Shown piece by piece: positions 1 to 61,969 of a stretch of 64,000 nucleotides of DNA (position 1 is the first letter of the stretch; each line of letters opens with the position of its first letter). The position numbers were made by a program, and so were the translations under genes. The notes beneath the pieces are model-generated. The model had not been told where the DNA came from and made no database searches. It worked only from the letters and a program-made list of their open reading frames with translations. This DNA is from Podarcis cretensis. Its lineage: Eukaryota. The stretch lies in contig OX638149.1 of assembly GCA_951804945.1 (NCBI GenBank), positions 63,302,001 to 63,366,000 of the forward strand. Direction: 5' to 3'.

Positions 1-3000
1 AGACAAGAACACACTGAAAGATGAGCATAATTTCCATCACTGCGCTGAAATGTTGATATCAAAGCTCAGACATCAATGAGCTCAGAAAATGTACAGAACA
101 CTCATCCCTAAGGGGATATTTTTGCTACAAGCATGCTTTAAGGCTTAAAAAGTTGCACAATTGACCTTTAATGAATAATTCTGCCCTTGGATGCAGCATT
201 TTCTCCCACTAATCCTATTAGATAAACTAGTGGGGCTGTAGGGGGCTCTAAACCTCATCTCTCATGAAAGTCCTGATCTGGAATAGGACGAAAATCCCTT
301 CTAAATGAAAAGGACATTTTTACAGGAGTGCCCCGAATCACATTTGAAACGAGAGTGAGGAGGGAACTTGTTGGAGTCCGGATCCACATTGGCTGTTTAT
401 TGGGTAAGGGGAGCAAACCCTGTACTCAAGGGCAGAACTATGACATTTAAGTCACGGGTAGGTTGGTCTTAGTACTTAATCTTTTGGAACAGAGTTGTAC
501 GTCCTGGTGCAGCCAGCAGCCAGCAGAGAGGTTTTCACAGGTTGCTAGCTGTGAAATAAGCTGCGAAACCGGTTGTGGACCAACAGCAGTAGTGCACACA
601 AAATGTGTTGGTTGTAAAAGCTGAAGGCTGCTCACCTTAACTCAGGGAAGTACAGTCCCCACCCCTGATTATTTGGAAAATACTGTACCCAGAGCTAAAC
701 TGAAGCCTGTTTTATTGTGGAGTGAAAACTTTTGCGTATACTCAGTGATTGCTGGCTCTTGTTAAGTGTTGTTGTTGTTGCTGAACTGTGCTTGTTTTGC
801 ATGGACATTTTATTTTATTTTTACGTCCCCCTTTGGATATTTTCCCTATTTCTCCGTCTCCCCACAACTTTCTAAGTCTGTGGAAATTTGCAGAGAATGA
901 GGATCTGAAGTACAAGTGATCGTGAATAACCTATTCCAACATGGATGTTTCTGGTATTTGGAGACTTTTGAGAAGTTTTCGCTCATTCACAGGACTTCTA
1001 AGTGATAGCAAGAGTATTTCCACTTAAAGGTGTTCCAATAAATATTTGCTGGAAACTATCAAGTGAGAACTACAGAGGAAAATATGTCGGTGTATTTATT
1101 CCACTCATACCTGAATCATTTTTAGTTAATGGTGATGGGTATCTGTATTGCTAGAGCCAACGACTCAAATCTTTACCACAATGTTCTCATTTCCAGTTCT
1201 ATTGCAAGGGGGGATGAGTTTGGCATTGTTTAAATGCTTCTAAATTATGCCTTTGGTATCAAATAAGTAAATGAATCAGAGGAGAGGACTGATTTGACTT
1301 TGTGCCATTAGTGCTTTTGTATAAAGATGGCAACTAAGTTGATCAGCCCAAAGCGGAGTACATCAGTCATGTACTAAAGACACAAACCACTTCGCAGTAA
1401 GTGCAGTCGAGCAGCACACCACAACCAGAAATATGGATTGCTTGCATTTATTTCCCTTGAAAGCCAATTGTTGTGACACTCCAGAAGCTTGACTGAAGAG
1501 GCTTGAAAACCCTGTGGTATTACAAATGGCACCTAGGCAAAAATGTTATGTGCCTGACCTTTCCTCGATGTGCCACACAGCAGCCAGTAACAAAACAAGC
1601 TGTCTAAATGTCAAAGCAGCAGAATAAATAAGAAAATCCAATCACTGAGCCGGTAGCTACCAGTTAGATTCCTCTGCTTATATCATCGGCATGCGGCAAG
1701 GGAAATCTCATTTGTTTTACTGCCCCATCATTGAGTCGTCCTAGCCTAGCACAAAAAATGCCAGTGCTGTGCAGTCTTCATATTATGGGTAGAAGTCTGA
1801 TACTTGGGGAGGGGGTGGGACAAATGGTATTGGATAATGTTTTTCTATCGCCCTATCCTTCTATCACTCCATCCCCCCATTGTATGAAAGAGCTGATCAT
1901 GACTTTTCAGAAACAAAGTTTGTCCGATGTGTATCTCAGTAATGGACTGGATGAGCGCAAACAACACAGAGCTCAATCTAGATAAGATTGTCGGTAGTGG
2001 TTGCCAAGTCCAGGCAGGGGAGGCACAACCCATTCTGCATGGAGCCACACTCTTCTTGAACGAGTAGGTGCACAGCTGAAAGGGTACTCCAGGACCCATC
2101 ACTGTCACAAGCCTCCATGGTGCAAGGAAAGGCAGCTGGCTTTCTCCTGATGGCATCATATTAGTTGGCTGGTGGTGAGGACAGTATCTCACACACTGGT
2201 TCTTCATTTATCCTGGTCTGCAGTGTAGACCAGAGGTAGCCAATGTAGTAACCTCCAGGTGTTGCTGAACTATGGCTTCCATCAGGCCTGATCATTAGCC
2301 ATCCAGGTTGGGGCTGATGGGAGTTGCAGTCCAACAATGTCTAAAGGGCATCAGGTTGGACATAGATAAACTGTAGATAAACCACAATGGACTCAATGGA
2401 AATTCCAAAGCAGTGCTCCCAACCCACCAACTTAGAGGAACACCGTTCTTCATATGCTTGCCTCTCTCCAATTGAATTTCCCCCTCCATCCTGGGGCTTG
2501 TCACACTGTTACATTTAATTCCCCCTGTGATCAAGAGCCCTTTTCTCAAAGAGCATGTATAAATAAACCACCCAAACTTTTGTTTTCCCACTCCCTCCTA
2601 CAGTGTTGACTTAGTAATGTACGTAAGGAAAACAGGGCCACTGTGACCTCATGCTGAGCAGAATAAAAGGAGAAGAAATGTGCTTTTTGAAAAACATCTC
2701 AGCCTCACATCCTTGAGTGCATTAGTCCCCAAAAGTTTAGTTCCTGGAGTTTGCTCAGCAAGCTGACAACAGGGCTGTTTGGCTGCCAAAACCTGAAAGA
2801 GAAAAACAGATCTCCAGCTGAGATGCAGCCACTGTTTCTGTATTTTATTTATTTATGTAGATGCTTTCCCTTTCCTGCCTCAATTACAATTTCAAGAGGG
2901 CTCATTACAGTATCTCTCTCCCTTGGGCACGGTTCTCGTTTACGCAGTTTTGTACTTTCACAAAGGGTGGGATCCAATGGGTGCTGCTGCACTGATGGAA

Positions 3001-4208
3001 GGCATCCATCAGCGGAATGGGAAGAGAGGCAGCTCTCAGTGATAACTCCGCTCTTCTGAATCCACCCCCCCCCAACCAAAATCTGTGATGGGAGATTGGG
3101 AGATATGTGGGAAACTATGGGGAGGCTTTCAGACACAGTATGCCTCTGACTACCAGTTGCTGGGAGCTGCAGGCGGGGAGAGAGCTGTTCTGTTCAGCCT
3201 CTGCTTGCAGGCTTCCAGTGGACATCTGGTTGGCCACTGTGAGAACAAAGGGCAGGACTACATGGGACTTTGGCCTGTTCTAATGGGAATGAATCTCTGA
3301 AAGTTGCCTCTTTCTCCTCATTCCACTGGCAGGCATCTTGCATCAGTGTAGCAAGACTCCTTTGATTCCACCCCCACTTTTTTAACTCCCAATGACATAG
3401 ATGCTTTGTCAGAGCAGAACTCTCCTATCAGAATTTTCCCTGCACCAGGTACCAAGAGTTTTCAGAACTCCAAGTGGTCTCTTTACCTCAGAGATACCCC
3501 TCACGGACGGGGCCCTTACTCAGAGAGATTGGTCATCCCCTTCTCCCGCCACTCTTCCCTTCTTCCTAGTTTGCTTCTGGGGTTTACAGTCCCAAACTCT
3601 TCCTTCCTGTTTCTCTTTTCTCCACTCTTCTTGTCCTGACAGAGCTAGCACAATTTCCATCTGCTGTTTGGTCCTTCCTATGCCTCTCTCATTTTCTCCC
3701 TCTGCTCCAAGGCCTGTTGACTTCCTCGTAGTATCTGTGCTTCTAATCTGTCACTCCTGTTCCTTTCCTCCTCTATGCTAGGACTGGTACCGGGCAGTCC
3801 CACACAAGAGCTTTCAAAGAGATGCTGACCACTCTCTGCATCCTTCCAATGTGCATCATTCCTGCGCAGCTCCACTTTTGTCATACAGGCTGAAGAGCCA
3901 CACAGAAACAGACTGCTTTGATAGGATCCCCTCATACCTCCCTATTGACTTTGCCTTCTTTTTGCAACTTCTAGCAGCAAACTTTCCAAACCTGCCTGAA
4001 TTGTAATTCAATCCCATGTCCTACAGATTCAAGATCCAGGCTTAATTGCCCTATATTTTTTGTGGGGGGGAGAGGTGTTTGATAATTCTAGCCTGCTTCT
4101 CAAGTCTACCACAATTTTGAGAACATTGCCCTCATTCTGTTTTGGGAGATTATAATGCTTGCATGCATAATCCTACTTCTTAAATGGATTTGTTTCTTAA
4201 CATCTAGC

Positions 4209-4209
<1 letters not shown>

Positions 4210-4246
<37 letters not shown>

Positions 4247-4350
4247 ATTTATTATACCCTGCCCATCTGATTTGGTTGCCCCAGCCACTCTGGGCAGCTT
4301 CCAAGAAAAATACAGGAAAAACAACAACAAACATTAGAGGCTTCCTGAAA
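4210..4350 (-). mobile_element. Short L2 3' end with (ATT)n tail
   Basis: Reverse complement of the same 3' motif (gcccatctg...ccccagccactctgggcagcttcc), with an (AAT)n microsatellite at 4210-4244. Confidence 0.75.
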
Positions 4351-4515
4351 CATACACTAATACATACTCTAGTTGATTAACTGTTGCCCGTCCACCTTTA
4401 GGCATATTAAAATATCCTAAATGTTTTAGAATAATTTTCTAGTTCCTTGTCAGACTAACCCCAAAGAAGTAAAAATTAAATATGCATCTTGCAGCTGCTA
4501 AACACCTGAAACTGT

Positions 4516-4585
4516 CTTATACTAACTCAGATTGTTTGTTCACCTTATACTAACTCACAATATACTAACTCAGATTGTTTGTTCA
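4516..4585. repeat. Local tandem duplication (TATACTAACTCA x3)
   Basis: TATACTAACTCAGATTGTTTGTTCA occurs twice, with a partial unit between. Confidence 0.9.
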
Positions 4586-5116
4586 TAGTATTGTATATCC
4601 TGGTTGCTAGTAGTTCTGTAAAGTCTCAGGAAGAAGCCACTCTCAGTAATGCCCATGATCCCTCATTTAAGTTCTAGGAATGGAAAATGGAACCTCCAGC
4701 ATGAAAAATGTGCTTTACTACTCAACTATGACCCTGCCAGTTCTTTCCTGTGTTGATGTTCCTGATACTGCATATGGCAGGTTTTTTTCCCAGCAAGCCT
4801 GTTGCCTGTAATAGCACTGCAGCTGGGATTTGGGTATTTGATTGTTTGTCTGGGTTGGCCTGATATTTCCAGCTTCTATGATTTGTAAGTTGTTCATTGG
4901 TTCACATCACAAGACATGAAGAGTAGTGAAATAATGAATCCTATAAAGTGGGATTCTATACATACTCATAGTAGTTGCACACATACATACATGGGAATAA
5001 GTCCCATAAAAAAACAGTGGGACTTACTTCCATGGAATTATGCATAGAACTGCAACCTAATAAGTCTTTTTGTTTGACTATGTTTTGTCCTATGCTTTCC
5101 CCATTCATTTGAAATA

Positions 5117-5477
5117 AAAAGGTAAGGTAAAGGACCCCTGACAGTTAAGTCCAGTCGTGAATGACTCTGGTGTTGTGGTGCTCATCTCACTTTACTGGCT
5201 GAGGGAGCCGATGTTTTGTCCGCAGACAGTTTTTGCAGGTCATGTGGCCAGCATGACTGAGCCGCTTCTGGCGAAACCAGAGCAGCACACGGAAACACCG
5301 TTTACCTTCCCGCCGGAGCGGTACCTATTTATCTACTTGCACTTTGATGTGCTTTTGAACTGCTAGGTTGGCAGGAGCTGGGACCGAGCAACAGGAGCAC
5401 ACCCTGCTGCGGGGATTTGAACCACCGACCTTCCGATCGGCAAGCCCTAGGCTCAGTGGTTTAGACTACAATGCCAC
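5117..5477 (-). mobile_element. Sauria SINE
   Basis: (ACCTTT)-type tail and a tRNA-derived head with B box GGTTCAAATCC. Homologous to the two other copies in the window. The 11-bp TSD CATTTGAAATA is at 5106-5116 and 5478-5488. Confidence 0.93.
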
Positions 5478-8114
5478 CATTTGAAATACATTTCATTTAA
5501 TAAGCATTTTATATAAGGGTATCAGCTTTTCAACCAACCTTTTAGCTGTGGCTTTATTTGAACCAATTAGCAGTTGAAAACACTTATCTGAATGAACTTA
5601 GACAAAGTATTTCACTTTGATGTAAATGTACATGAGAGTTTTAAGCTTGTAATTCTATACCCAATATCTGAGAGTCAAAGCCCCCCCCCAACAAAAAAAA
5701 GACTCAGTGGCTGTTACTTCTGAGTAGTCATGCATAGGACCCATATTGTCAAGGTAGGGGAAAGCTTGAGAAAATAAAAACCTCCTAGGCACATGCCTTT
5801 CGGTGTGTACAGCTCTGTCTTTCTGATTAATTGCTCACATTTTATTTTTGCAGAAGTCACAGACCGGGCAGTTTCCATCATTGACTAGTATATGAAGGGA
5901 TTCAGTTTGCATTATTCTCAAGTCCCTGTTCTTTGTGTGAAGTAATTAATCATTCTAAACTACTGAAATAAAGGTAAGTGAAGTGTAAAATAACTTATTA
6001 ATTTACTACTTTGCTCATATCCACTTTTGAAAGAGTTTAACTTAATTTGCTGCCAGAGGAAATGCCTCCTGCTAACTGGCATTATGCTGAAGTTGTGATA
6101 GATAAAAATTCCTCTTAATATATACAAGGCCAAATCACATATCTTGCATATCTTAACCAAATTGGAGCTCAGCTGAAATTGATCAGAAAACATTTTTACG
6201 AGAAAGTTTCTGCGACCCCTTTTTTCCTCCCCTTAGAAAATACCACTTTGCAGAATTTCCTTGGAATATTACCACCACGTCGTTTGAATGGCAAGCACCC
6301 CTACCGCTCCATAGTGCCCCACCCTGAATGATGCTTATCTTCTTCTCTCAAGAAGGTAAAATAAGTTTCTATATTGTATTTATCACAATGAGATTACTGG
6401 GCAGTAAGAATAGCCGTCAAACTGGTTTTCAAATGAGTTCTCATTCATCTAGACAGTTTTCAAGGCAAGATCTTCCTAGCTTCACCCAGCTGCCTAGCAT
6501 GGTTTTTCGGTGCCCACTGGGTGTGTGCACACCGGGGGCAGGGTGGGTCATGGAAGGTGAACGGAGCCTGCCATGCCAGCCCAGCCCTTGCTGCCAGTGC
6601 CTCTGGAGTGACTCTCCCACCTGAAGCCAAGCAAGGCCACATTGTGCCGCTGGCCTGCCCACAAAGTCTCACCCTTGCTTTGTAAGGCTGAGGTTGAAGG
6701 GCACATGGCTGTTGCATCCTCCTCACACGGCCCTGCCAGCCCTGAACCACTCTTTGAGGCTGGAATCTGATCTGAATAATTCACCCTGTACCTCCCCTGC
6801 CGCCTGAAGCTTGCATTGTATCTGCTTTTCTGATTCTGTCATGGTCCATGCAGGCTACCCAAGCATCTTCCTAGTCTTCACTGACTTGTCCTCCTTTTCA
6901 CTCCCTATAATAATCTTGCATTATGTTGAGTTCATTTAAACGATTGTAGAGCAGCCATGCCAGTTTTTTTTATCTTCGTTTTTGTAGGCTTACAATTCTC
7001 TGTCTAGAATATCTCAGTGGAACAGCCATGCCCTCTTGAACTCTTTTCTATTAGGTTTTCTTTCGAAGAAGATTCCCTTAATCATGAAGTCTGGTTTTCT
7101 AGAATCTTCTTCCTTTTTCCTTTACTTTGGGTCACAAAAATATATGTGTCCCCCCCCCATATTACCCCCGCTTTTTCTCACCCGCAAGGCACCTGACACT
7201 TGTGTGTTCACTAAGAATCCTCCTTTGCTAATCAATAAATGCTGACTCTAGCTGCCAACTTTTCATATAATATTTAATACAAAAATGCTGTCTGTAGAAG
7301 TCTTGTTGTGAAATACATCACAACAGTTGTTTAGCTGCTTTTCTCTGTTAATGAGAACCAGATCTAAAACAGTTGAGTCTTTACTTGCTGCTTCAGTCAT
7401 CTGAAGCAACAGGTTCTTACCACAACCCAAGTTTTCATGCATTTTTAAAATGAATATCAGTATTGACGTCCTCCATTATCTGACTTGTGCATAGTTAAAT
7501 CCTTTCTTCTAGAACCCCAGACAACTATGTCTCTTATCTGTTTTGGTGGTATACAGGAGACTCCAATTATAATACCTTAGAGAAAACACCGGAAAAATAT
7601 GAAGTAATGAGAATGAAGGAGGATAAAATCGCAGAGAACAAAGCAGGGAAGGCAGAGACAGGTTATCCACAAAATCAAACTGGATATTCTAGCTCTGGGA
7701 ATGAATTAAAATTTTGTCAGTGCACTTCTCATTTGGTATATGTTTCACTACACAAAGCAAGCAGTGGGTGCTGATGAACAACAGGTGAGGGACAACAAAA
7801 TGGTGGATGAGACTTAGGTCCCATTTACACTGTACATTTAAAGCAGTATCATAACTCTTTAAACAGTCATGGCTTCCCCCAAATGTATCATGGGTATTGT
7901 CATTTCTTAAGGGAGAGATGTTAGGAGACCCCCTAGTCCCCCCGCAGAGCCTCAGTTCTCAGCGTGGTTTAACAGTCAATCCCACTTTCCCAGAGAGCTC
8001 AAGGAATTGTAGCTCTATGAGGGAAATAAGGGTCTCTTACCAACCTTAAATGTAAACTGCAGAGGAGGTCCTACTTCATATGCAAACTGATGCACATGGG
8101 ACATCCTGACACCG

Positions 8115-36372: not shown

Positions 36373-39300
36373 TCATGTCCGACTCTTCGTGACCCCATGG
36401 ACCAGAGAACGCCAGGCACTCCTGTCCTCCACTGCCCCCCGCAGCTTGGTCAGACTCATGCTGGTAACCTCGAAAACACTATCCAACCATCTCATCCTCT
36501 GTCGCCCCCTTCTCCTTGTGCCCTCCATCTTTCCCAACATCAGGGTCTTCTCCAGGGAGTCTTCTCTTCTCATGAGGTGGCCAAAGTATTGGAGCCTCAG
36601 CTTCACAATCTGCCCTTCCAGTGAGCACTCAGGGCTGATTTCCTTCAGAATGGAGAGGTTTGATCTTCTTGCAGTCCATGGGACTCTCAAGAGTCTCCTC
36701 CAGCACCATAATTCAAAAGCATCAATTCTTCGGCGATCAGCCTTCTTTATGGTCCAGCTCTCACTTCCATACATCACTACTGGGAAAACCATAGCTTTAA
36801 CTATACGGACCTTTGTTGGCAAGGTTATGTCTCTACTTCTCAAGATGCTGTCTAGGCCTGTCATTGCCCTTCTCCCAAGAAGCAGGCGTCTTTTAATTTC
36901 GTGGCTGCTGTCACCATCTGCAGTGATCATGGAGCCCAAGAAAGTAAAATCTCTCACTGCCTCCATTTCTTCCCCTTCTATTTGCCAGGAGGTGATGGGA
37001 CCAGTAGCCATGATCTTCGTTTTTTTGATGTTGAGCTTCAGACCATATTTTGCACTCTCCTCTTTCACCCTCAATAAAAGGTTCTTTAATTCCTCCTCAC
37101 TTTCTGCCATCAAGGTTGTGTCATCTGCATATCTGAGGTTGTTGATATTTCTTCCGGCAATCTTAATTCCGGCTAGGGATTCATCCAGCCCAGCCTTTCG
37201 CATGATGAATTCTGCATATAAGTTAAATAAGCAGGGAGACAAAATGCAGCCTTGTCGTACTCCTTTCCCAATTTTGAACCAGTCAGTTGTTCCATATCCA
37301 GTTCTAACTGTAGCTTCTTGTCCCACATAGAGATTTCTCAGGAGACAGATGAGGTGATCAGGCACTCCCATTTCTTTAAGAACTTGCCATAGTTTGCCAT
37401 GGTCGACACAGTCAAAGGCTTTTGCATAGTCAATGAAGCAGAAGTAAATGTCTTTCTGGAACTCTCTAGCTTTCTCCATAATCCAGCGCATGTTTGCAAT
37501 TTGGTCTCTGGTTCCTCTGCCTCTTCTAAATCCAGCTTGCACTTCTGGGAGTTCTCGGTCCACATACTGCTTGAGCCTTCCTTGTAGAATTTTAAGCATA
37601 ACCTTGCTAGCGTGAGAAATTAGTGCAATTGTGCGATAGTTGGAGCATTCTTTGGCACTGCCCTTCTTTGGGATTGGGATGTAGACTGATCTTCTCCAAT
37701 CTTCTGGCCACTGCTGAGTTTTCCAAACTTGCTGGCATATTGAGTGTAGCACCTTAACAGCATCATCTTTTAAAATTTTAAATAGTTCAGCTGGAATACC
37801 ATCACTTCCACTGGCCTTGTTATTTGCAGTGCTTTCTAAGGCCCATTTGACTTCACTCTCCAGGATGTCTGGCTCAAGGTCAGCAACCACACTACCTGGG
37901 GTATATGAGACATCCGTTTCTTTCTGGTATAATTCCTCTGTGTATTCTTGCCACCTCTTCTTGATGTCTTCTGCTTCTGTTAGGTCCTTTCCACTTTTGT
38001 CCTTTATTATGGAAATCTTTGTGCGAAATGTTCCTTTCATATCTCCAATTTTCTTGAACAGATCTCTGGTTCTTCCCATTCTATTGCTTTCCTCTATTTC
38101 TTTGCATTGCTTGTTTAAGAAGGTCTTCTTGTCTCTCCTTGCTATTCTTTGGAAATCTGCATTCAATTTCCTGTATGTTTCACGATCTCCCTTGCATTTT
38201 GCTTGCCTTCTCTCCCCCGCTATTTGTAAGGCCTCATTGGACAGCCACTTTGCTTTCTTGCATTTCCTTTTCATTGGGATGGTTTTCGTTGCTGCCTCCT
38301 GTATAATGTTACGAGCCTCCATCCATAGTTCTTCAGGCACTCTGTCCACCAAATCTAAATCCTTAAACCTGTTCCTCACTTCCACTGTGTATTCATAAGG
38401 GATTTGACTTAGATTGTATCTTACCGGCCCAGTGGTTTTTCCTACTTTCTTCAGTTTAAGCTTGAATTTTGCTATAAGAAGCTGATGATCTGAGCCACAG
38501 TCAGCTCCAGGTCTTGTTTTTGCTGACTGTATAGAGCTTCTCCATCTTTGGCTGCAGAGAATATAATCAATCTGATTTCGATGCTGCCCATCTGGTGATG
38601 TCCATGTGTAGAGTCGTCTCTTGTGTTGTTGGAAAAGCGTGTTTGTGATGACCAGCTTGTTCTCTTGACAGAACTCTATTAGCCTTTGCCCTGCTTCGTT
38701 TTGATCTCCAAGGCCAAACTTGCCAGTTGTTCCTTTTATCTCTTGACTCCCTACTTTAGCATTCCAATCCCCTATAATGAGAAGAACATCCTTCTTTGGT
38801 GTCACTTCTATAAGGTGTTGTAAGTCTTCATAGAATTGGTCAATTTCAGTTTCTTCAGCACCAGTAGTTGGTGCATAAACTTGGATCATTGTGATGTTAA
38901 AAGGTCTGCCTTGGATTCGTGTCGAGATCATTCTATCATTTTTGAGATTGCAACCCAGTACAGCTTTTGCCACTCTTTTGTTGACTATGAGGGCCACTCC
39001 ATTTCTTTTACGGGTTTCTTGCCCACAGTAGTAGATATGATGGTCATCCGAACTGAATTCACCCATTCCCGTCCATTTTAGTTCACTGATGCCCAGGATG
39101 TCAATATTTATTCTTGCCATCTCATTTTTGACCACCTCCAACTTACCCATGTTCATGGTTCTTACATTCCAGGTTCCTATGCAATATTTTTCTTTACAGC
39201 ATTGGACTTTCCTTTCGCTTCCAGGCATATCCGCAACTGAGCGTCCTTTCGGCTTTGGCCCAGCCGCTTCATCAGCTCTGGATCTACTTGTACTTGCCCT

Positions 39301-39462
39301 CCGCTCTTCCCCAGTAGCATGTTGGACGCCTTCCGACCTGAGGGGCTCATCTTCCAGCGTCATAACTTTTATATGCCTGTTGTCTTTGTCCATGGAGTTT
39401 TCTTGGCAGGGATACTGGAGTGGCTTGCCGATTCCTCCTCCAGGTGGATCACGTTTGGTCAA
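36373..39462 (-). CDS. BovB ORF: AP-like endonuclease + reverse transcriptase (1029 aa)
   Basis: Endonuclease motifs GTWNVRT, LGISE, QVYAPT, IGDWNAKVG, NQIDYIL and SDH. RT motifs QAGFR, FIDYAKAFDCVDH, GVRQGCILSP and YADD. No internal stops. The track start is TTG; the first ATG is at 39393. Confidence 0.96.
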   Translation of the reverse strand: MTKRDPPGGGIGKPLQYPCQENSMDKDNRHIKVMTLEDEPLRSEGVQHATGEERRASTSRSRADEAAGPKPKGRSVADMPGSERKVQCCKEKYCIGTWNVRTMNMGKLEVVKNEMARINIDILGISELKWTGMGEFSSDDHHIYYCGQETRKRNGVALIVNKRVAKAVLGCNLKNDRMISTRIQGRPFNITMIQVYAPTTGAEETEIDQFYEDLQHLIEVTPKKDVLLIIGDWNAKVGSQEIKGTTGKFGLGDQNEAGQRLIEFCQENKLVITNTLFQQHKRRLYTWTSPDGQHRNQIDYILCSQRWRSSIQSAKTRPGADCGSDHQLLIAKFKLKLKKVGKTTGPVRYNLSQIPYEYTVEVRNRFKDLDLVDRVPEELWMEARNIIQEAATKTIPMKRKCKKAKWLSNEALQIAGERRQAKCKGDRETYRKLNADFQRIARRDKKTFLNKQCKEIEESNRMGRTRDLFKKIGDMKGTFRTKISIIKDKSGKDLTEAEDIKKRWQEYTEELYQKETDVSYTPGSVVADLEPDILESEVKWALESTANNKASGSDGIPAELFKILKDDAVKVLHSICQQVWKTQQWPEDWRRSVYIPIPKKGSAKECSNYRTIALISHASKVMLKILQGRLKQYVDRELPEVQAGFRRGRGTRDQIANMRWIMEKAREFQKDIYFCFIDYAKAFDCVDHGKLWQVLKEMGVPDHLICLLRNLYVGQEATVRTGYGTTDWFKIGKGVRQGCILSPCLFNLYAEFIMRKAGLDESLAGIKIAGRNINNLRYADDTTLMAESEEELKNLLLRVKEESAKYGLKLNIKKTKIMATGPITSWQIEGEEMEAVRDFTFLGSMITADGDSSHEIKRRLLLGRRAMTGLDSILRSRDITLPTKVRIVKAMVFPVVMYGSESWTIKKADRRRIDAFELWCWRRLLRVPWTARRSNLSILKEISPECSLEGQIVKLRLQYFGHLMRREDSLEKTLMLGKMEGTRRRGRQRMRWLDSVFEVTSMSLTKLRGAVEDRSAWRSLVHGVTKSRT

Positions 39463-39572
39463 AACTCTCCACTATGACCTGTTCATCTTGGGTGCCCTGC
39501 TCGGCATAGTTCATAGCTTCTCTGAGTTCTTCAAGCCCCTTCGCCACGGCAAGGCAGTGATCCATGAAGGGG
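39446..39572 (-). ncRNA. Putative HDV-like self-cleaving ribozyme fold in the BovB 5' UTR
   Basis: Manual fold: P1 CCCCTTC/GAAGGGG, P2 GGATCAC/GTGATCC, P3 GCC/GGC, L3 TTGCCGT, an extended P4 (AGAACTC/GAGTTTT; GCTATGA/TCATAGT) and J4/2 C-C-A-A. The +1 base is a non-canonical C. Confidence 0.55.
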
Positions 39573-41989: not shown

Positions 41990-43200
41990 GGTTGCGTGTG
42001 GAGGTCCCCAAGCCACCCCCTAAATAAATCACAATTCACACAGATTTTTTGTTTAAGGTTTTTGGCATAATTTTGGCCACAACCTTATTAAAATACATAA
42101 TGTGAGTGGTTGCTTAGGCATTGGTTACGACTATCTGTCCCCGCCCCAGGACAGAACTGACTTCTGGATTCCAGCGAAAGCCAGTAAAGGAAAACAATAT
42201 TGGGGAGAGAATGGGGCTGGGCACCATATCCTCACCCCTCCTCACATGCTCCCAGGGGCTTGCGCGGCCCAAGCCCCTTGTCAGGGATTTGGACAAAAGC
42301 ATGGCAAACCCCTGGATTCCTCTAACAGAATTCCCTTGCAGCAGCAGCGTTGGAGGGGCAGGAACTGCCAACCCTTACCCCTCCACCAACCAAATTTTAA
42401 CCAATGCCTAACCGCAACGATTTGCTACGCACTAGGCAAAAACCAAATGGCACCAGCCAATCAGCCAAATGGAAAAAATTCCTACCAGGCCCCTGCTCCA
42501 AAGCAGATGACCTCATGACAGGCATAGCAATGTCAAACGCAACAGCCCTAAATTAGGGAGGGTAGGCAGGCGATCCGATGCACACAGCCAAAGGGACTGC
42601 ACCATGCTGCATGCTAAGAATATATAACCTTTGGGCCAACCCACTAAATGGTAACATCAAAATCTCCCTAACAACCCAAACTGACCCAATCACAGTCATG
42701 GCCATCCAAACAGTTCCACCCAGCAACCAAGGGGGGGAGTCCTGCTAGACCCCACCGCAACATGTGCCCTCCACGAAGGAAACACACTTTGTTGTACATG
42801 TTAATGTTCAAAAGAGAGAGTAAAATTAATCCATAAGTGGTATTTGGCCCCAACCAGCAGGGAAAAGGTGGTGGGGCGTTTCCGCCCAGGGCTGCCTCCC
42901 CCCGGGCATGGAGGCTCTGATGCTGGCTCCCCTGTTTGACAGCTGTGTGGAGGGTGGCCGTCTGCCAAGTATTGAAGGGGTGTTGGCTGGTGACTCTCGG
43001 GGGTCCCTTTACAGATCCCCACCTCAGTTAGCAACCAGCCCGAAGGGGCTGTGTGTGTGGTGTGTGTAGGGGAGAAGCAGGCTAGGCGATGTGTGGCCCA
43101 CAGGTTCTGTGTCAAAATGGTGTTCAAGCGGGCGGCCTAGTGGTGAAGTGACCACTGACACCACTTCCAAAATGGTGCCAAGGCTTGTGTGCTCCTTATG
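41990..43200 (-). mobile_element. Non-coding (non-autonomous) relative of the YR retroelement
   Basis: 41990-42415 is homologous, as reverse complement, to 60235-60687 and ends at the same CACGCAACC terminus. The upstream part is GC-rich with no recognisable ORF. The far boundary is uncertain (43200-43385). Confidence 0.7.
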
Positions 43201-54252: not shown

Positions 54253-54420
54253 CCACACTCACCTTCATGTCAAAGTCCTTCATGCCTTATGGTCCAGCTT
54301 GGACCATCTCCTCCTGAACTAGTCCATCCTGTTACTGAATCATTCCCTGACTTCCCCTGCTTTCTGTAGAGCAGTGGTTAGTGACAGAACCCTTTACAGT
54401 TTGGTGTTCTGCATTTCAAA

Positions 54421-54740
54421 TGGATCAAACCTATCCATTTTTAATGAAATCAGTCCTGAGTGCTCACTGGAAGGACGGATCGTGAAGCTGAGGCTCCAAT
54501 ACTTTGACCACCTCACGAGAAGAGAAGACTCCCTGGAAAAGAACCTGATGTTGGGAAAGATGGAGGGCACAAGGAGAAGGGGACGACAGAGGACTAGATG
54601 GTTGGACAGTGTACTCAAAGCTACCAGCATGAGTTTGACCAAACTGTGGGAGGCAGTGGAAGATAAGGAATGCTTGGCGTGCTCTGGTCAATGGAGTCAC
54701 GAAGAGTCAGACACGACTAAACAACTAAACAACAACAACA
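54421..54740 (+). mobile_element. 5'-truncated BovB (3' end)
   Basis: Encodes SNLSIFNEISPECSLEGRIVKLRLQYF and has a (CAA)n tail. The 8-bp TSD ATTTCAAA is at 54413-54420 and 54741-54748. Confidence 0.95.
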
Positions 54741-55563
54741 ATTTCAAACACACTTACCCGGGGTGCTCCCCTGTTGACTATGCTGATGCCATTTTGGCAC
54801 CAGGCAAAGGCCTTACTTTCTGAGCCTTTTAAACCTTGTAAGCCTATGTGAACTTTATATCTGCTATGATTTATTTCTGATGCTTTGTCTGCTTCTTTAT
54901 GCTGCCTTTTCATTTATTTTATGAGATTGTATCGATTCTGTTATTGTGGCTCACTGTGGGAACACCAGGAGCTAAAAGTACAGGTAATATATTTAAATAA
55001 GTATATACATAAAACATATAAAAAGTGTTTAATGTACAAAACACTTTACGGTTACTAAATGTGAAAAGAGGTATACAACATCTGTAGTGTTCCTCTTCAT
55101 AAGACCTCTGTTCAGAAAGGTTGTTTTTTTTAAAGTATCTGGTAATAAAAAGGTGGATGGTTAATTCAAGTTTAGAAAGTAGTGTTTTGAAGGACTTTGG
55201 CTCAAACTGGGATATAAAGTTTTACAAGACTTTTTCTATATATAAAAAAGGTGAGAGCCTCTGGGGTGATTAAGATTAATTGTGCTGGAGTTTTGGAACA
55301 GAACAATTTATACCTAGAACTAGAAATTTTTAAAAGTAAAGAATAACAGTTTAGATTAAAACTTTATCTGGGTTTTGATAGAGATATGGTGGTGAGGATT
55401 TCTGGAAATATGCTTTTTGTGACAGAAAAAACGGATTGAGAACCAGAGGCTTACCAGCTAAATACAAAAATTTCTGTTTGGAATATTTCTATACAGTATT
55501 TCTAATTGGAAAATAGTTTGATATCCTCTGTTATATATACCCAAGCTGAAAGAATGCATGTTG

Positions 55564-59335: not shown

Positions 59336-59524
59336 CAGTGGTACCTCAGGTTACAAACGCTTCAGGTTACAGACTCCGCTAACCCGGAAGTAATATCTCA
59401 GGTTAAGAACTTTAGCTCAGGATGAGAACAGAAATCGTGCAGTGGTGGCGCAGCGGCAGTGGGAGGCCCCATTAGCTAAAGTGGTACCCCAGGTTAAGAA
59501 CAGTTTCAGGTTAAGAACGGACCT
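59336..59524. mobile_element. Truncated Tc1/mariner MITE, same family as 35668
   Basis: The left TIR and TA are present and the sequence is collinear with 35668 up to GGACCT, where it is fused to YR-element sequence. The right TIR is absent. Confidence 0.88.
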
Positions 59525-59531
59525 TAATTTC

Positions 59532-59588
59532 ATTAAGGATCTGGGCCGGTGGAAGTCGGACACGTTCAGAGGTTATGTACGGAAATGA
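59532..59588 (+). pseudogene. Tyrosine recombinase C-terminal remnant (box II: GRW-S...Y)
   Basis: ATT AAG GAT CTG GGC CGG TGG AAG TCG GAC ACG TTC AGA GGT TAT GTA CGG AAA TGA translates to IKDLGRWKSDTFRGYVRK*. This is the GRWxS...Y catalytic-tyrosine motif of DIRS/Ngaro recombinases. Confidence 0.8.
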
Positions 59589-59599
59589 TGTGATTTTGT

Positions 59600-60202
59600 G
59601 TGCTTACGTTTCTTGTTTTCACCCTAGGTCCAGCTGCTATACGCATCTGGATAGTGGGGCACAGTATTGTACATTGGGCTGCTAGCAGAGCTCGACAGTC
59701 CGGATTGGTTGATGGCCTTGGCCTTCCGCAGCACGTGCGGGTGTCCTGGATCTCCAGAAGGGGGATGCTGTGGAAGGAACTTCTACCGCTTATGCAGAGG
59801 CGTGTTCTCATGGAAGGCCCTCCTACGGCGATTGTGGTGCAGCTCGGGGAAAATTATATGGTTTCCTCTTCCTGTTATGTTCTGCGTGCTGTTATGTTGC
59901 AAGATTTGAGGGAATTGGCAGCCATGGTGCCCGCAACTAAAATAATTTGGTCACAGTTGCTTCAACGCCACAATTGGTGGGGTAGTCCCTGTTCAGCTGC
60001 CACTGAATGGGTTAGAAAGTGGATTAATTCTGCAGTGAGCAAGTTGGTGGTTGATTTGGGTGGGTTTGTGATTCTGCACCCTCTTATTACCTTCAAAGCC
60101 ACTGAATTCTATAGGATGGATGGGGTTCATCTTTCATCAGTTGGGAATGATGTTTGGTTCAATTCGGTGGTGGACAAGTTGAGGGTGTGTTTGAGTTTGT
60201 GA
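59600..60202 (+). CDS. SGNH/GDSL-type hydrolase ORF of the YR retroelement
   Basis: Block I IWIVGHSIVHW, block II RRGMLW, block III VQLGEN(Y) and block V DGVH. Open for 200 codons with no ATG near the start. A splice acceptor falls at 59627/59628. Confidence 0.85.
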   Translation: MLTFLVFTLGPAAIRIWIVGHSIVHWAASRARQSGLVDGLGLPQHVRVSWISRRGMLWKELLPLMQRRVLMEGPPTAIVVQLGENYMVSSSCYVLRAVMLQDLRELAAMVPATKIIWSQLLQRHNWWGSPCSAATEWVRKWINSAVSKLVVDLGGFVILHPLITFKATEFYRMDGVHLSSVGNDVWFNSVVDKLRVCLSL

Positions 60203-61367
60203 GTGGTTGGCGGCGAGCGTAAGGGCTCGAGTGGCGGTTAGGTATTGGTTTAAATTGGTTGGTGGAGGGGTATGGATTGGCTGTGCCTGCCCCTCCAATG
60301 CTGCTGCTGTATGGGAATTCCGTTAAAGGAATTCAGGGGCTTACCATCCTTTCGTCCAAACCCCTGGAATCGGGTTTGGGCCATGTAAGCCCCTAGGAGC
60401 ATGCGGGGAGAAGCTGAGGGTCTGTGCCGCAGCTCCAGTTATCCCTGATCTTGTTCCTCCACACTGGCTTTCGCTGGAATCCAGGAGCCAGTGCTGTCCC
60501 CAAGGCGGGGGGGGGGGGGGGGAGGACGACGGGACAGATAGTCATAACAAATGCCTAAGCAACCACTCACAATTTGTATGTTAATAAAGTTGTGGCCAAA
60601 ATTATGCCAAAAACCTTAAACAAAAATTCATGTGTGATGTGTGAGTTATTGGGGTAAGAGTGTTTTGGGGGACCTCAGCACGCAACCCTTGTGGACATTC
60701 AAGAATCCAAACTCCATGCCACTGCCTTTAAATGCTCTCATGACATGCCAGATGATACTTGAAGCCCTGCTCATGCATTACAACAATGAATTAGGGCAAG
60801 ACATAAATTCGCTAATGTGCAGTTAATCACTAAGGAACAAGAAGACACATTCCTCAGACTGTGCTAGCTGCATGCAAATGAAACAGAACAAGGATGCAGA
60901 AGGGAAGAACAATACAGAGAATGAGAGAAAATGATGCTGACTCATGCCCACCCTCTCAAATTTTTGATGGTTGAGCCTTTACTAGTCATCCAGTGGCCTT
61001 TATTTTATTAATGTCCTTCCATCATCAAAGTCTATTCTGATCTGCTATGGCTGGTGTGCTAGCTAACTTGCACAGATGTGGATACCGGTTGACTTTCAAA
61101 GCACCCTAACTTACTCCTTTCAGGTTTTTCTACATAGAGCTGATATATTGGTCAGGAAGCTAGTCATGCACATCATTCTGAATTCCCACAAAGGCACAAG
61201 TACTTTGCAAGCAATTGTTTCAAAATCTGAATTTATAGCTCATAAAGATGGTGATATGCTGATATTTGAATTGGCCCATGATAGAGAAGGCTGTTTTTGA
61301 CCTACTTATTCTACCATGGCTCCCAAATATTTCTCATGATGTGCACCTACACTTCCACTGTCTATGA

Positions 61368-61440
61368 CAGGCATCCCCAAACTCGGCCCTCCAGCTGTTT
61401 TGGGACTACAACTCCCATCATCCCTAGCTAACAGGACCAG
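61368..61440. mobile_element. Left half of a palindromic 'GGACTACAACTCCCATCA' MITE, cut by BovB
   Basis: Same family as the more complete copies at about 2231-2360, 13880-14010, 24784-24880, 46205-46340 and 50790-50910. Confidence 0.7.
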
Positions 61441-61769
61441 TTGTTGTTGTTTAGTCGTTTAGTCGTGTCCGACTCTTCGTGACCCCATGGACCCCATGGA
61501 CCAGGAGTGCCACGCCAGGCACTCCTGTCTTCCACTGCCTCCCGCAGTTTGGTCAGACTCATGTTTGTGGCTTCGAGAACACTGTCCAACCATCTCGTCC
61601 TCTGTCGTCCCCTTCTCCTTGTGCCCTCAATCTTTCCCAATGACAGGGTCTTTTCCAGGGAGTCTTCTCTTCTCATGAGGTGGCCAAAGTATTCGAGCCT
61701 CAGCTTCATGATCTGTCCTTCCAGTGACCACTCAGGGCTGATTTCCTTCAGAATGGATGCGTTTGATCT
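61441..61769 (-). mobile_element. 5'-truncated BovB (3' end)
   Basis: Matches the full-length 3' end (KLRLEYFGHLMRREDSLEK), with a (CAA)n tail and a small internal duplication ACCCCATGG x2. No TSD seen. Confidence 0.95.
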
Positions 61770-61969
61770 GAGAGTGTGAGACAGGAAGTCTCAGTACTGT
61801 TGGTGTATTGTTGTAAGTTAGTTTCACTTCTGTGTGTGATGCTTTTCTGTACAGCTGCTGAGAGAGCACAGACATGCTGATGGACTCTTTGTATATAGAC
61901 TGTAAAATAAAGTAGTTTAGAGCTACTGATTGACTCTTTCTTCTGCTATGATATGCCAGAAGACAAGTG

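Follow-up and report, generated by a model that had tools for sequence, protein, structure and literature searches.

We propose that the open SGNH hydrolase frame (ORF4) found in the window, the 64,000-nt stretch of Podarcis cretensis DNA analysed here, corresponds to exon 2 of a Gag(N)-SGNH message that Ngaro retrotransposons make by splicing, and that the copy in the window is a neutral, 5′-deleted relic lacking the splice donor. We assign this reading a probability of about 0.8. In intact elements, the first ∼222 gag codons would be spliced to the SGNH exon, and the unspliced RNA would give full Gag and would also serve as the genome.

The Ngaro relic in the window and its family

The features of the relic are collected in Table 1. 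The original prediction described a tyrosine recombinase (YR) terminus, GRWKS...Y, followed by a frame with four SGNH blocks, and we found all of these in place. The YR frame ends with the C-terminus GRWKSDTFRGYVRK* (stop codon 59586-59588), and the ORF4 frame opens 5 nt past this stop in a different frame, remaining open for 202 codons from stop to stop (59594-60202, plus strand). Block I reads GHS (Ser codon 59663-65), block II SRRG (Gly codon 59762-64), block III GENY (Asn 59852-54, Tyr 59855-57) and block V DGVH (Asp 60119-21, His 60128-30). Hence, the Ser-Asp-His triad is intact as predicted, all the catalytic residues being present. The reading of block III as GENY was also correct; its Tyr is specific to this copy and is not the state of the family (Asp in 82 of 83 homologues, Tyr in 0 of 83), and among the 46 genomic copies the base change was seen in only one other.

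Table 1. Window coordinates of the Ngaro relic and of its left flank
Feature	Position	Strand	Remarks
MITE-like high-copy non-autonomous element with TIRs, last ∼39 nt missing	59336..59524	+	not part of Ngaro
7-nt filler, deletion junction	59525..59531	.	MITE homology stops at 59524, Ngaro homology from 59532
Last tyrosine recombinase codons (GRWKS...Y) and stop	59532..59588	+	sister ORF matches Phage_integrase and Phage_int_SAM_4
Predicted 3′ splice site	59603..59627	+	branch A 59606, pyrimidine tract, AG 59626-59627, phase 1
SGNH exon (ORF4)	59628..60202	+	open; 191 codons from split Gly; S, G, N, D, H present
Single B terminal repeat	60232..60685	+	AATAAA at 60583; its right edge is the element's natural 3′ terminus

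The relic comprises the last 1.15 kb of the element (59532-60685). The deletion at the filler took the end of the MITE-like repeat together with ∼5.4 kb of Ngaro sequence, namely A1, gag with its donor, RT/RNase H and most of the YR, in agreement with the earlier statement that gag, RT and most of the YR are gone. The MITE-like repeat, which we take to be of the Tc1/mariner type from its TA flank, shows 91-94% identity in the best 40 of 3410 candidates, and full copies (L130, L131 and L134) reach the right TIR. At the other end, A2-B2 is missing and was likely lost by B1/B2 recombination. It is likely that the window copy is a 5′-deleted Ngaro remnant that decays neutrally, and without a donor it cannot make the Gag(N)-SGNH product.

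Elsewhere in the window, a second Ngaro remnant (41992-42689, minus strand) consists of B and adjoining sequence only, 75-80% identical to the intact copies. A LINE with a 1032-codon open frame for endonuclease and RT, presumably RTE/BovB-like, occupies 36373-39471 (minus strand), and short 3′ fragments of the same kind of LINE lie at ∼54300-54800 and 61430-61790.

Searching the genome for relatives of 59532-60685 gave 61 matches, with the best 40 of 2525 candidates scored. Intact elements have the order A1-gag-RT/RH-YR-ORF4-B1-A2-B2, where the gag-like ORF has 518 codons; the full-length relatives thus carry gag, RT/RNase H and YR, as expected from the earlier reading as a tyrosine-recombinase retroelement. 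In one copy (L031), Pfam gave a weak CCCH match in the 518-aa ORF1, RVT_1 (E 1.7e-13) and Phage_integrase (E 4e-6). The absence of a methyltransferase domain separates Ngaro from DIRS-like and PAT-like elements, and no methyltransferase family was among the matches when the four ORFs of a single copy were run against Pfam in general. The data support a lacertid Ngaro-group YR retrotransposon with an SGNH ORF4, a class assigned from layout and Pfam matches. The nearest named proteins are from Podarcis and Zootoca, and further homologues occur in other squamates, salamanders and a clam. A hydrolase ORF past the recombinase had been stated to occur in some Ngaro elements, and this agrees with the passages of PMC9210276 describing Xenopus DIRS-53_XT and DIRS-54_XT as Ngaro-like with an SGNH ORF4; passages of PMC7192593 and PMC6681497 also mention an Ngaro hydrolase ORF.

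In sisters that are 78-79% identical to the window copy over ORF4, the split direct repeats are 100% (A) and 99.5-100% (B) identical. Repeats this similar within intact copies indicate that the family was mobile recently. The B1/B2 pair was detected in 25 of the 46 fetched copies. The other 21 (among L021-L060 and L101-L110) show no such pair, fetch limits possibly cutting some of them; the more diverged ones stop after one B, and such single-B copies fit B1/B2 recombination, which in Ngaro would be the counterpart of solo-LTR formation. The sister closest to the window copy, L040 (G000:C1:45733800-45743700; 92-95% identical), has an insertion of ∼580 nt in ORF4 with a short target duplication. 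In intact elements, A1 is also separated from the gag ATG by a 1.2-kb leader (L041:860-1960), GC-rich and then AT-rich, which ends with a pyrimidine tract and AG directly before the ATG; it may be an extra 5′ intron, yet it is kept in the intron-less copy described below.

The profile search proposed with the original prediction gave a divided result. The window ORF4 protein had no Pfam match at E ≤ 1, whereas the ORF4s of all six sisters scanned gave weak GDSL-lipase matches (Lipase_GDSL(_2); best E 5e-4), under the gathering score. Many of the ORF4 homologues carry a precomputed PF13472 match. Neither the window protein nor alignment A1 as the query matched any PDB sequence. The predicted model of the window protein (pLDDT 69) matched SGNH hydrolases in Foldseek (E 3e-6 and up) and aligned with VIA at Z 13.3 (rmsd 3.4, 165 aligned). 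The SGNH domain of a RefSeq relative, P0001, was predicted with a pLDDT of ∼90 (Foldseek E 1e-7) and aligned with a solved SGNH enzyme at Z 19.9 (rmsd 2.9, 183 aligned). From these predicted models, we consider the SGNH alpha/beta/alpha fold of the ORF4 product to be settled.

Proposed splicing of gag to ORF4

The spacer between the YR stop and ORF4 is 52-60 nt long, and each of the three frames is represented (9, 4 and 6 of 19 rows); YR read-through or a fixed frameshift into ORF4 was therefore rejected. No Met is present upstream of block I in the window ORF4. The first one, exon residue 47, lies 34 residues C-terminal to the catalytic Ser, which disfavours stand-alone translation. An AG is found 20 nt before the block-I Trp codon in 44 of the 46 rows, the exceptions being L034, where a 1-nt deletion shifts it, and the spliced copy; a branch-point motif with a pyrimidine tract lies upstream of this AG in 43 of 46. 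In gag, the donor CAG/GTAC follows the first base of codon 223 in all 33 copies holding the region (36 examined), and seven of nine sisters of the second subfamily have CCG/GTA. We take this donor to be a modest match to the usual donor consensus. Both the gag donor and the ORF4 acceptor are in phase 1.

We observed the same joint in gene models. Among 23 longer homologous proteins, 15 join the end of the Gag exon (∼222 residues) to SGNH at the predicted residue and three instead join YR or read-through sequence to SGNH; the Gag-SGNH proteins are RefSeq models from Podarcis and Zootoca and may be ab initio predictions reading the same motifs.

The strongest evidence for Gag-ORF4 splicing is a genomic copy without the intron. 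Using one of these Gag-SGNH proteins as the query, we found a copy, L101 (= L071; G000:C7:20211500-20219500, minus strand), in which Gag and SGNH are in one frame. Both of its ends are complete, A1/A2 being 100% and B1/B2 99.8% identical, and it is 97.7-99.5% identical to the full-length copies L102-L104. Missing from it are 3,375-3,377 nt, with GT at the start and AG at the end, exactly between the predicted donor and acceptor, which had been predicted from another subfamily before L101 was found. L101 is the sole intron-less copy found. It would have arisen when a spliced RNA was reverse-transcribed and the product integrated in trans; the RT of DIRS-1 is reported to act in trans in a passage of PMC7192593.

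Near the end of its gag exon, L101 also carries a short internal duplication, and the exon frame changes at a G/C run; the RefSeq protein P0007 has a similar duplication.

Next, we looked at contigs from four runs guessed to be RNA, among which X1-X3 are one sample and X11 hardly covers the element. Run X1 has contig starts at 2608 and 6024 of L041 and a contig end at 6053, which correspond to 2625, 6038 and 6067 when these contigs are placed on L057. Given contig overlaps of 30 nt, breaks would be expected at just these bases if paths branched at the donor and rejoined at the SGNH acceptor. In run X3, one contig ends on the last exon base (2652). Runs X2 and X3 have no break at the SGNH acceptor, though they are of the same sample as X1, and no donor-to-acceptor joint was present among the joint rows listed for the RNA-like runs (15 of 50 and 15 of 26). 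The contig breaks in this one RNA-like sample fit Gag-ORF4 splicing and are indirect evidence for it.

The competing explanation is that ORF4 is made alone or as a YR-SGNH protein, by read-through, frameshift, re-initiation or a donor in YR, and that L101 is a chance deletion at microhomology. The 3-nt microhomology at the L101 junction would suit such a deletion, ORF4 is in the YR frame in the 9 of 19 spacers mentioned, and YR is joined to SGNH in the RefSeq models P0005, P0011, P0023 and P0030. However, ORF4 is out of the YR frame in the remaining 10 spacers, and the position of the first Met behind the catalytic Ser speaks against a protein made alone. For L101, a random deletion hitting both predicted sites has a chance of ∼1 in 10^6 to 10^7 (4 registers over ∼2 x 10^7 end pairs in 6 kb), and the five other large internal deletions among the 46 copies all miss both the donor and the acceptor (a count that leaves out '713-6627' and '1645-7759', two artefactual rows in which A2 had been matched to A1). 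We therefore regard this explanation as improbable and retain the spliced Gag(N)-SGNH message.

The recombinase and its probable use of the same gag donor

As in ORF4, no early Met is present in the YR ORF. Where this ORF starts, within the end of RNase H, a branch motif, a pyrimidine tract and CAG in phase 1 are present in 41 of 46 copies, a conservation confounded by the overlap with the conserved end of RNase H. Third positions at this putative acceptor are variable at 3-5 of 12, compared with 6-12 in most upstream blocks; the constraint is likewise confounded, since the YR frame overlaps here and one upstream block also stands at 3 of 12.

The YR homologues of at least 380 residues (n = 23) include 10 that switch to a non-RT N-terminus exactly at the YR acceptor, from lacertids, an anole, geckos, an amphisbaenian, a frog and a sea urchin; these fusion gene models may be ab initio. 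One Podarcis YR model shares its Gag exon with the SGNH fusions, and the SGNH and YR fusions of other lizards have common N-termini (E 2e-15 within Hemicordylus). An intron-less Gag-YR or Gag-RT copy was not found among 86 scored matches, and a pattern search for intron-less sequences gave 11 matches compared with 5 in the control, none with Ngaro homology. No RNA-like run had a break at the YR acceptor. From the conservation and the gene models, we think it probable that the gag donor is also spliced to the phase-1 YR acceptor, giving Gag(N)-YR.

Two further candidates were rejected. A contig break on L041 at 4993/5022, at first sight the YR acceptor, lies ∼20 nt upstream of it and is accounted for by a conserved 30-mer common to two element families. 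A third acceptor, for RT, had a candidate phase-1 AG in 28 of 40 regex rows (2 of them spurious); in the second subfamily, the position reads GG, and an RT acceptor is not supported at this site.

On balance, we lean towards a wider picture in which Ngaro elements are alternatively spliced. One gag donor would serve phase-matched YR and esterase acceptors, so that both enzymes would be fusions to the Gag N-terminus. The YR acceptor would be written into the end of RNase H from lizards to frogs and sea urchins, the layout would be like that of the LINE esterase ORF1p, and spliced RNAs could integrate as non-autonomous copies.

Selection, host use and likely function of the SGNH exon

Between subfamilies, the dN/dS of ORF4 is 0.16-0.29 in 14 of 15 pairs, which supports purifying selection in the element lineage and reflects the element's own needs. 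Between the window copy and L040, it is 0.43. By comparison with a sister plus an outgroup, we counted 11 changes specific to the window copy, eight non-synonymous (G28V, D77Y, R115H, R118W, R128W, R132W, P150L and L178F) and three synonymous, a ratio compatible with neutrality in what is a weak test (p 0.72 against neutral, p 0.08 against a dN/dS of 0.25). L040, equally dead owing to its insertion, shows 14 non-synonymous and 11 synonymous changes. The dN/dS check suggested earlier indicated selection for the element lineage; the changes of the window copy itself look neutral, though they are too few to reject selection firmly.

The open frame had been taken as a sign of either young age or selection, and this argument is not supported. 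A stop results from 4.5% of random changes, and by arithmetic 11 changes leave the frame open in ∼60% of cases. Stops were present in 5 of the 46 copies; together with the insertion in L040 and the 1-nt deletion in L034, this leaves ∼39-40 of 46 open, in a set picked by score, which favours open frames. With so few changes, a low stop rate and most of the sisters open, neither youth nor host selection is needed to account for the frame.

In mammals, the host genes TMPO and ZNF451 contain exonised DIRS ORF1 (LAP2alpha; passages of PMC4495291). There, the last exon of the host gene stems from a DIRS-order sequence that brought along an acceptor and a poly(A) signal, and a locus on C9 of the present genome resembles this case. 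At this locus, L137 (G000:C9:2048966-2049544, minus strand), we observed an old open Ngaro SGNH exon with the catalytic His changed to Asn and an adjoining YR containing a stop. The exon is 91% identical to the last exon of Podarcis muralis P0017 and 80% to that of Zootoca P0020. In both models, the exon is joined by splicing to a ZNF638/matrin-like host gene, and matches to the exons of this gene lie 17-40 kb upstream of L137. Another Zootoca model, P0018, has a similar gene with a different SGNH terminal exon, the triad intact. From the sequence comparison, the L137 exon is a candidate for an exonisation common to the two genera. The built-in acceptor explains why host genes can pick up these exons.

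As to the function of the fused protein, the shared Gag exon was modelled (monomer) with two helices (34-45 and 50-67; pLDDT 67-84) and then a long disordered stretch, and its final 30 residues contain 13 K/R, an arginine-rich motif placed before the esterase. The SGNH domain is strongly basic (pI 11.8 in a sister). This layout is like that of ORF1p of the LINE ZfL2-1 and of the related CR1/RTEX esterase ORF1ps, in which a helical N-terminus, a linker and an arginine-rich motif precede a basic SGNH domain with Ser-Asp-His and Gly/Asn; in ZfL2-1, the N-terminus is a coiled coil, the basic esterase (pI 10.8) is a slow ester hydrolase that also binds acidic liposomes (passages of PMC3905857). The LINE protein is, however, encoded by a contiguous ORF1 of a non-LTR element, whereas the Ngaro product would be spliced from Gag and a 3′ ORF, and the YR and split direct repeats show that the present element lies outside this LINE family, although its product would work in a similar way. 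Dimerisation, activity and lipid binding have been demonstrated in ZfL2-1 alone (PMC3905857), the Ngaro product being known from its sequence and from predicted models. The ZfL2-1 esterase structure was not among the fold matches listed, which excludes nothing.

Two other groups of elements offer comparisons. The Xenopus Ngaro elements share the A1...B1-A2-B2 arrangement with gag, RT/RH, YR and a hydrolase ORF of unproven function; the passages of PMC9210276 place the hydrolase ORF in amphibians, while here it is found in lacertids and with evidence for splicing from gag. In bdelloid LTR elements, ORF3 encodes a GDSL esterase, and ORF3 or env of LTR elements is expressed from spliced messages (passages of PMC5408684). 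These elements are alike in having an extra 3′ ORF reached via a spliced message and an esterase as an accessory ORF. They differ in being DDE-integrase elements, whereas in Ngaro half of Gag would be joined in frame and the YR, itself the integrating enzyme, probably uses the same donor.

Two further explanations concern what the SGNH exon is for. According to one, the host has co-opted the window copy, the acceptor and the poly(A) signal making the SGNH exon a host last exon. The acceptor, the open frame, the catalytic residues and AATAAA are all intact in this copy, and exonisation has apparently occurred elsewhere, as in the five RefSeq models from Podarcis and Zootoca that end the ZNF638/matrin-like gene in an Ngaro SGNH exon, with the matching open exon at L137, and in the mammalian DIRS exons (PMC4495291). 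In contrast to TMPO and ZNF451, however, signs of purifying selection and of host use are absent from the window copy; its own changes alter residues conserved in 82 of 83 (D77) and 70 of 83 (G28) homologues, no database protein returned was more than 81% identical to the window protein, and an open frame is ordinary among the sisters. Even with the weakness of the neutrality test, the co-option raised in the original prediction is not supported for this locus, which is itself ordinary, and we consider it very improbable. The other explanation accepts the splicing as described and takes SGNH for a non-enzymatic RNA- or membrane-binding module, comparable to the OSK domain of Oskar, or for a regulator titrating full-length Gag. 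The basic character of the domain, the presence of OSK among its fold matches (Z 17.5), and the low turnover and liposome binding of the ZfL2-1 esterase (passages of PMC3905857) would all be in keeping with this; against it, 79-81 of the 83 homologous domains retain the Ser, Gly, Asn, Asp and His, a conservation that spans lizards and a clam and points to selection on catalysis. A non-enzymatic SGNH domain is therefore unlikely, though less so than co-option.

By analogy with the LINE proteins, the most likely function is that of a particle- or RNA-tethered esterase that would act on membrane lipids in transport or assembly. The shared Gag N-terminus, with its helices and arginine-rich motif, would tether both the esterase and the recombinase to the particle or the RNA, and the basic esterase may bind or hydrolyse acidic lipids, as ZfL2-1 ORF1p does.

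The hydrolase ORF4 is already known from Xenopus Ngaro, and what makes the analysis worthwhile is the family's splice map, backed by the integrated copy that precisely lacks the intron. The main-text passages searched contain no description of spliced expression of Ngaro ORFs, and an earlier mention is possible. The string 'splic' is absent from the main text of PMC9210276, whose supplements list ORFs and ESTs and may bear on splicing, and Ngaro splicing is not described in passages of PMC6681497, PMC5408684, PMC3905857, PMC9341512, PMC7192593, PMC4495291, PMC3266345 and PMC5633606. In the same literature, how overlapping Ngaro ORFs without early starts are expressed is not addressed, and the hydrolase is described as lacking a proven function. 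Once splice sites are mapped to exact coordinates, the expression of Ngaro elements and the role of the hydrolase both become testable. The relevant proteins become Gag(N)-SGNH and Gag(N)-YR, in place of the products of ORF finders. Since the layout matches that of ZfL2-1 ORF1p, retroelements of unrelated classes may need the same tethered esterase.
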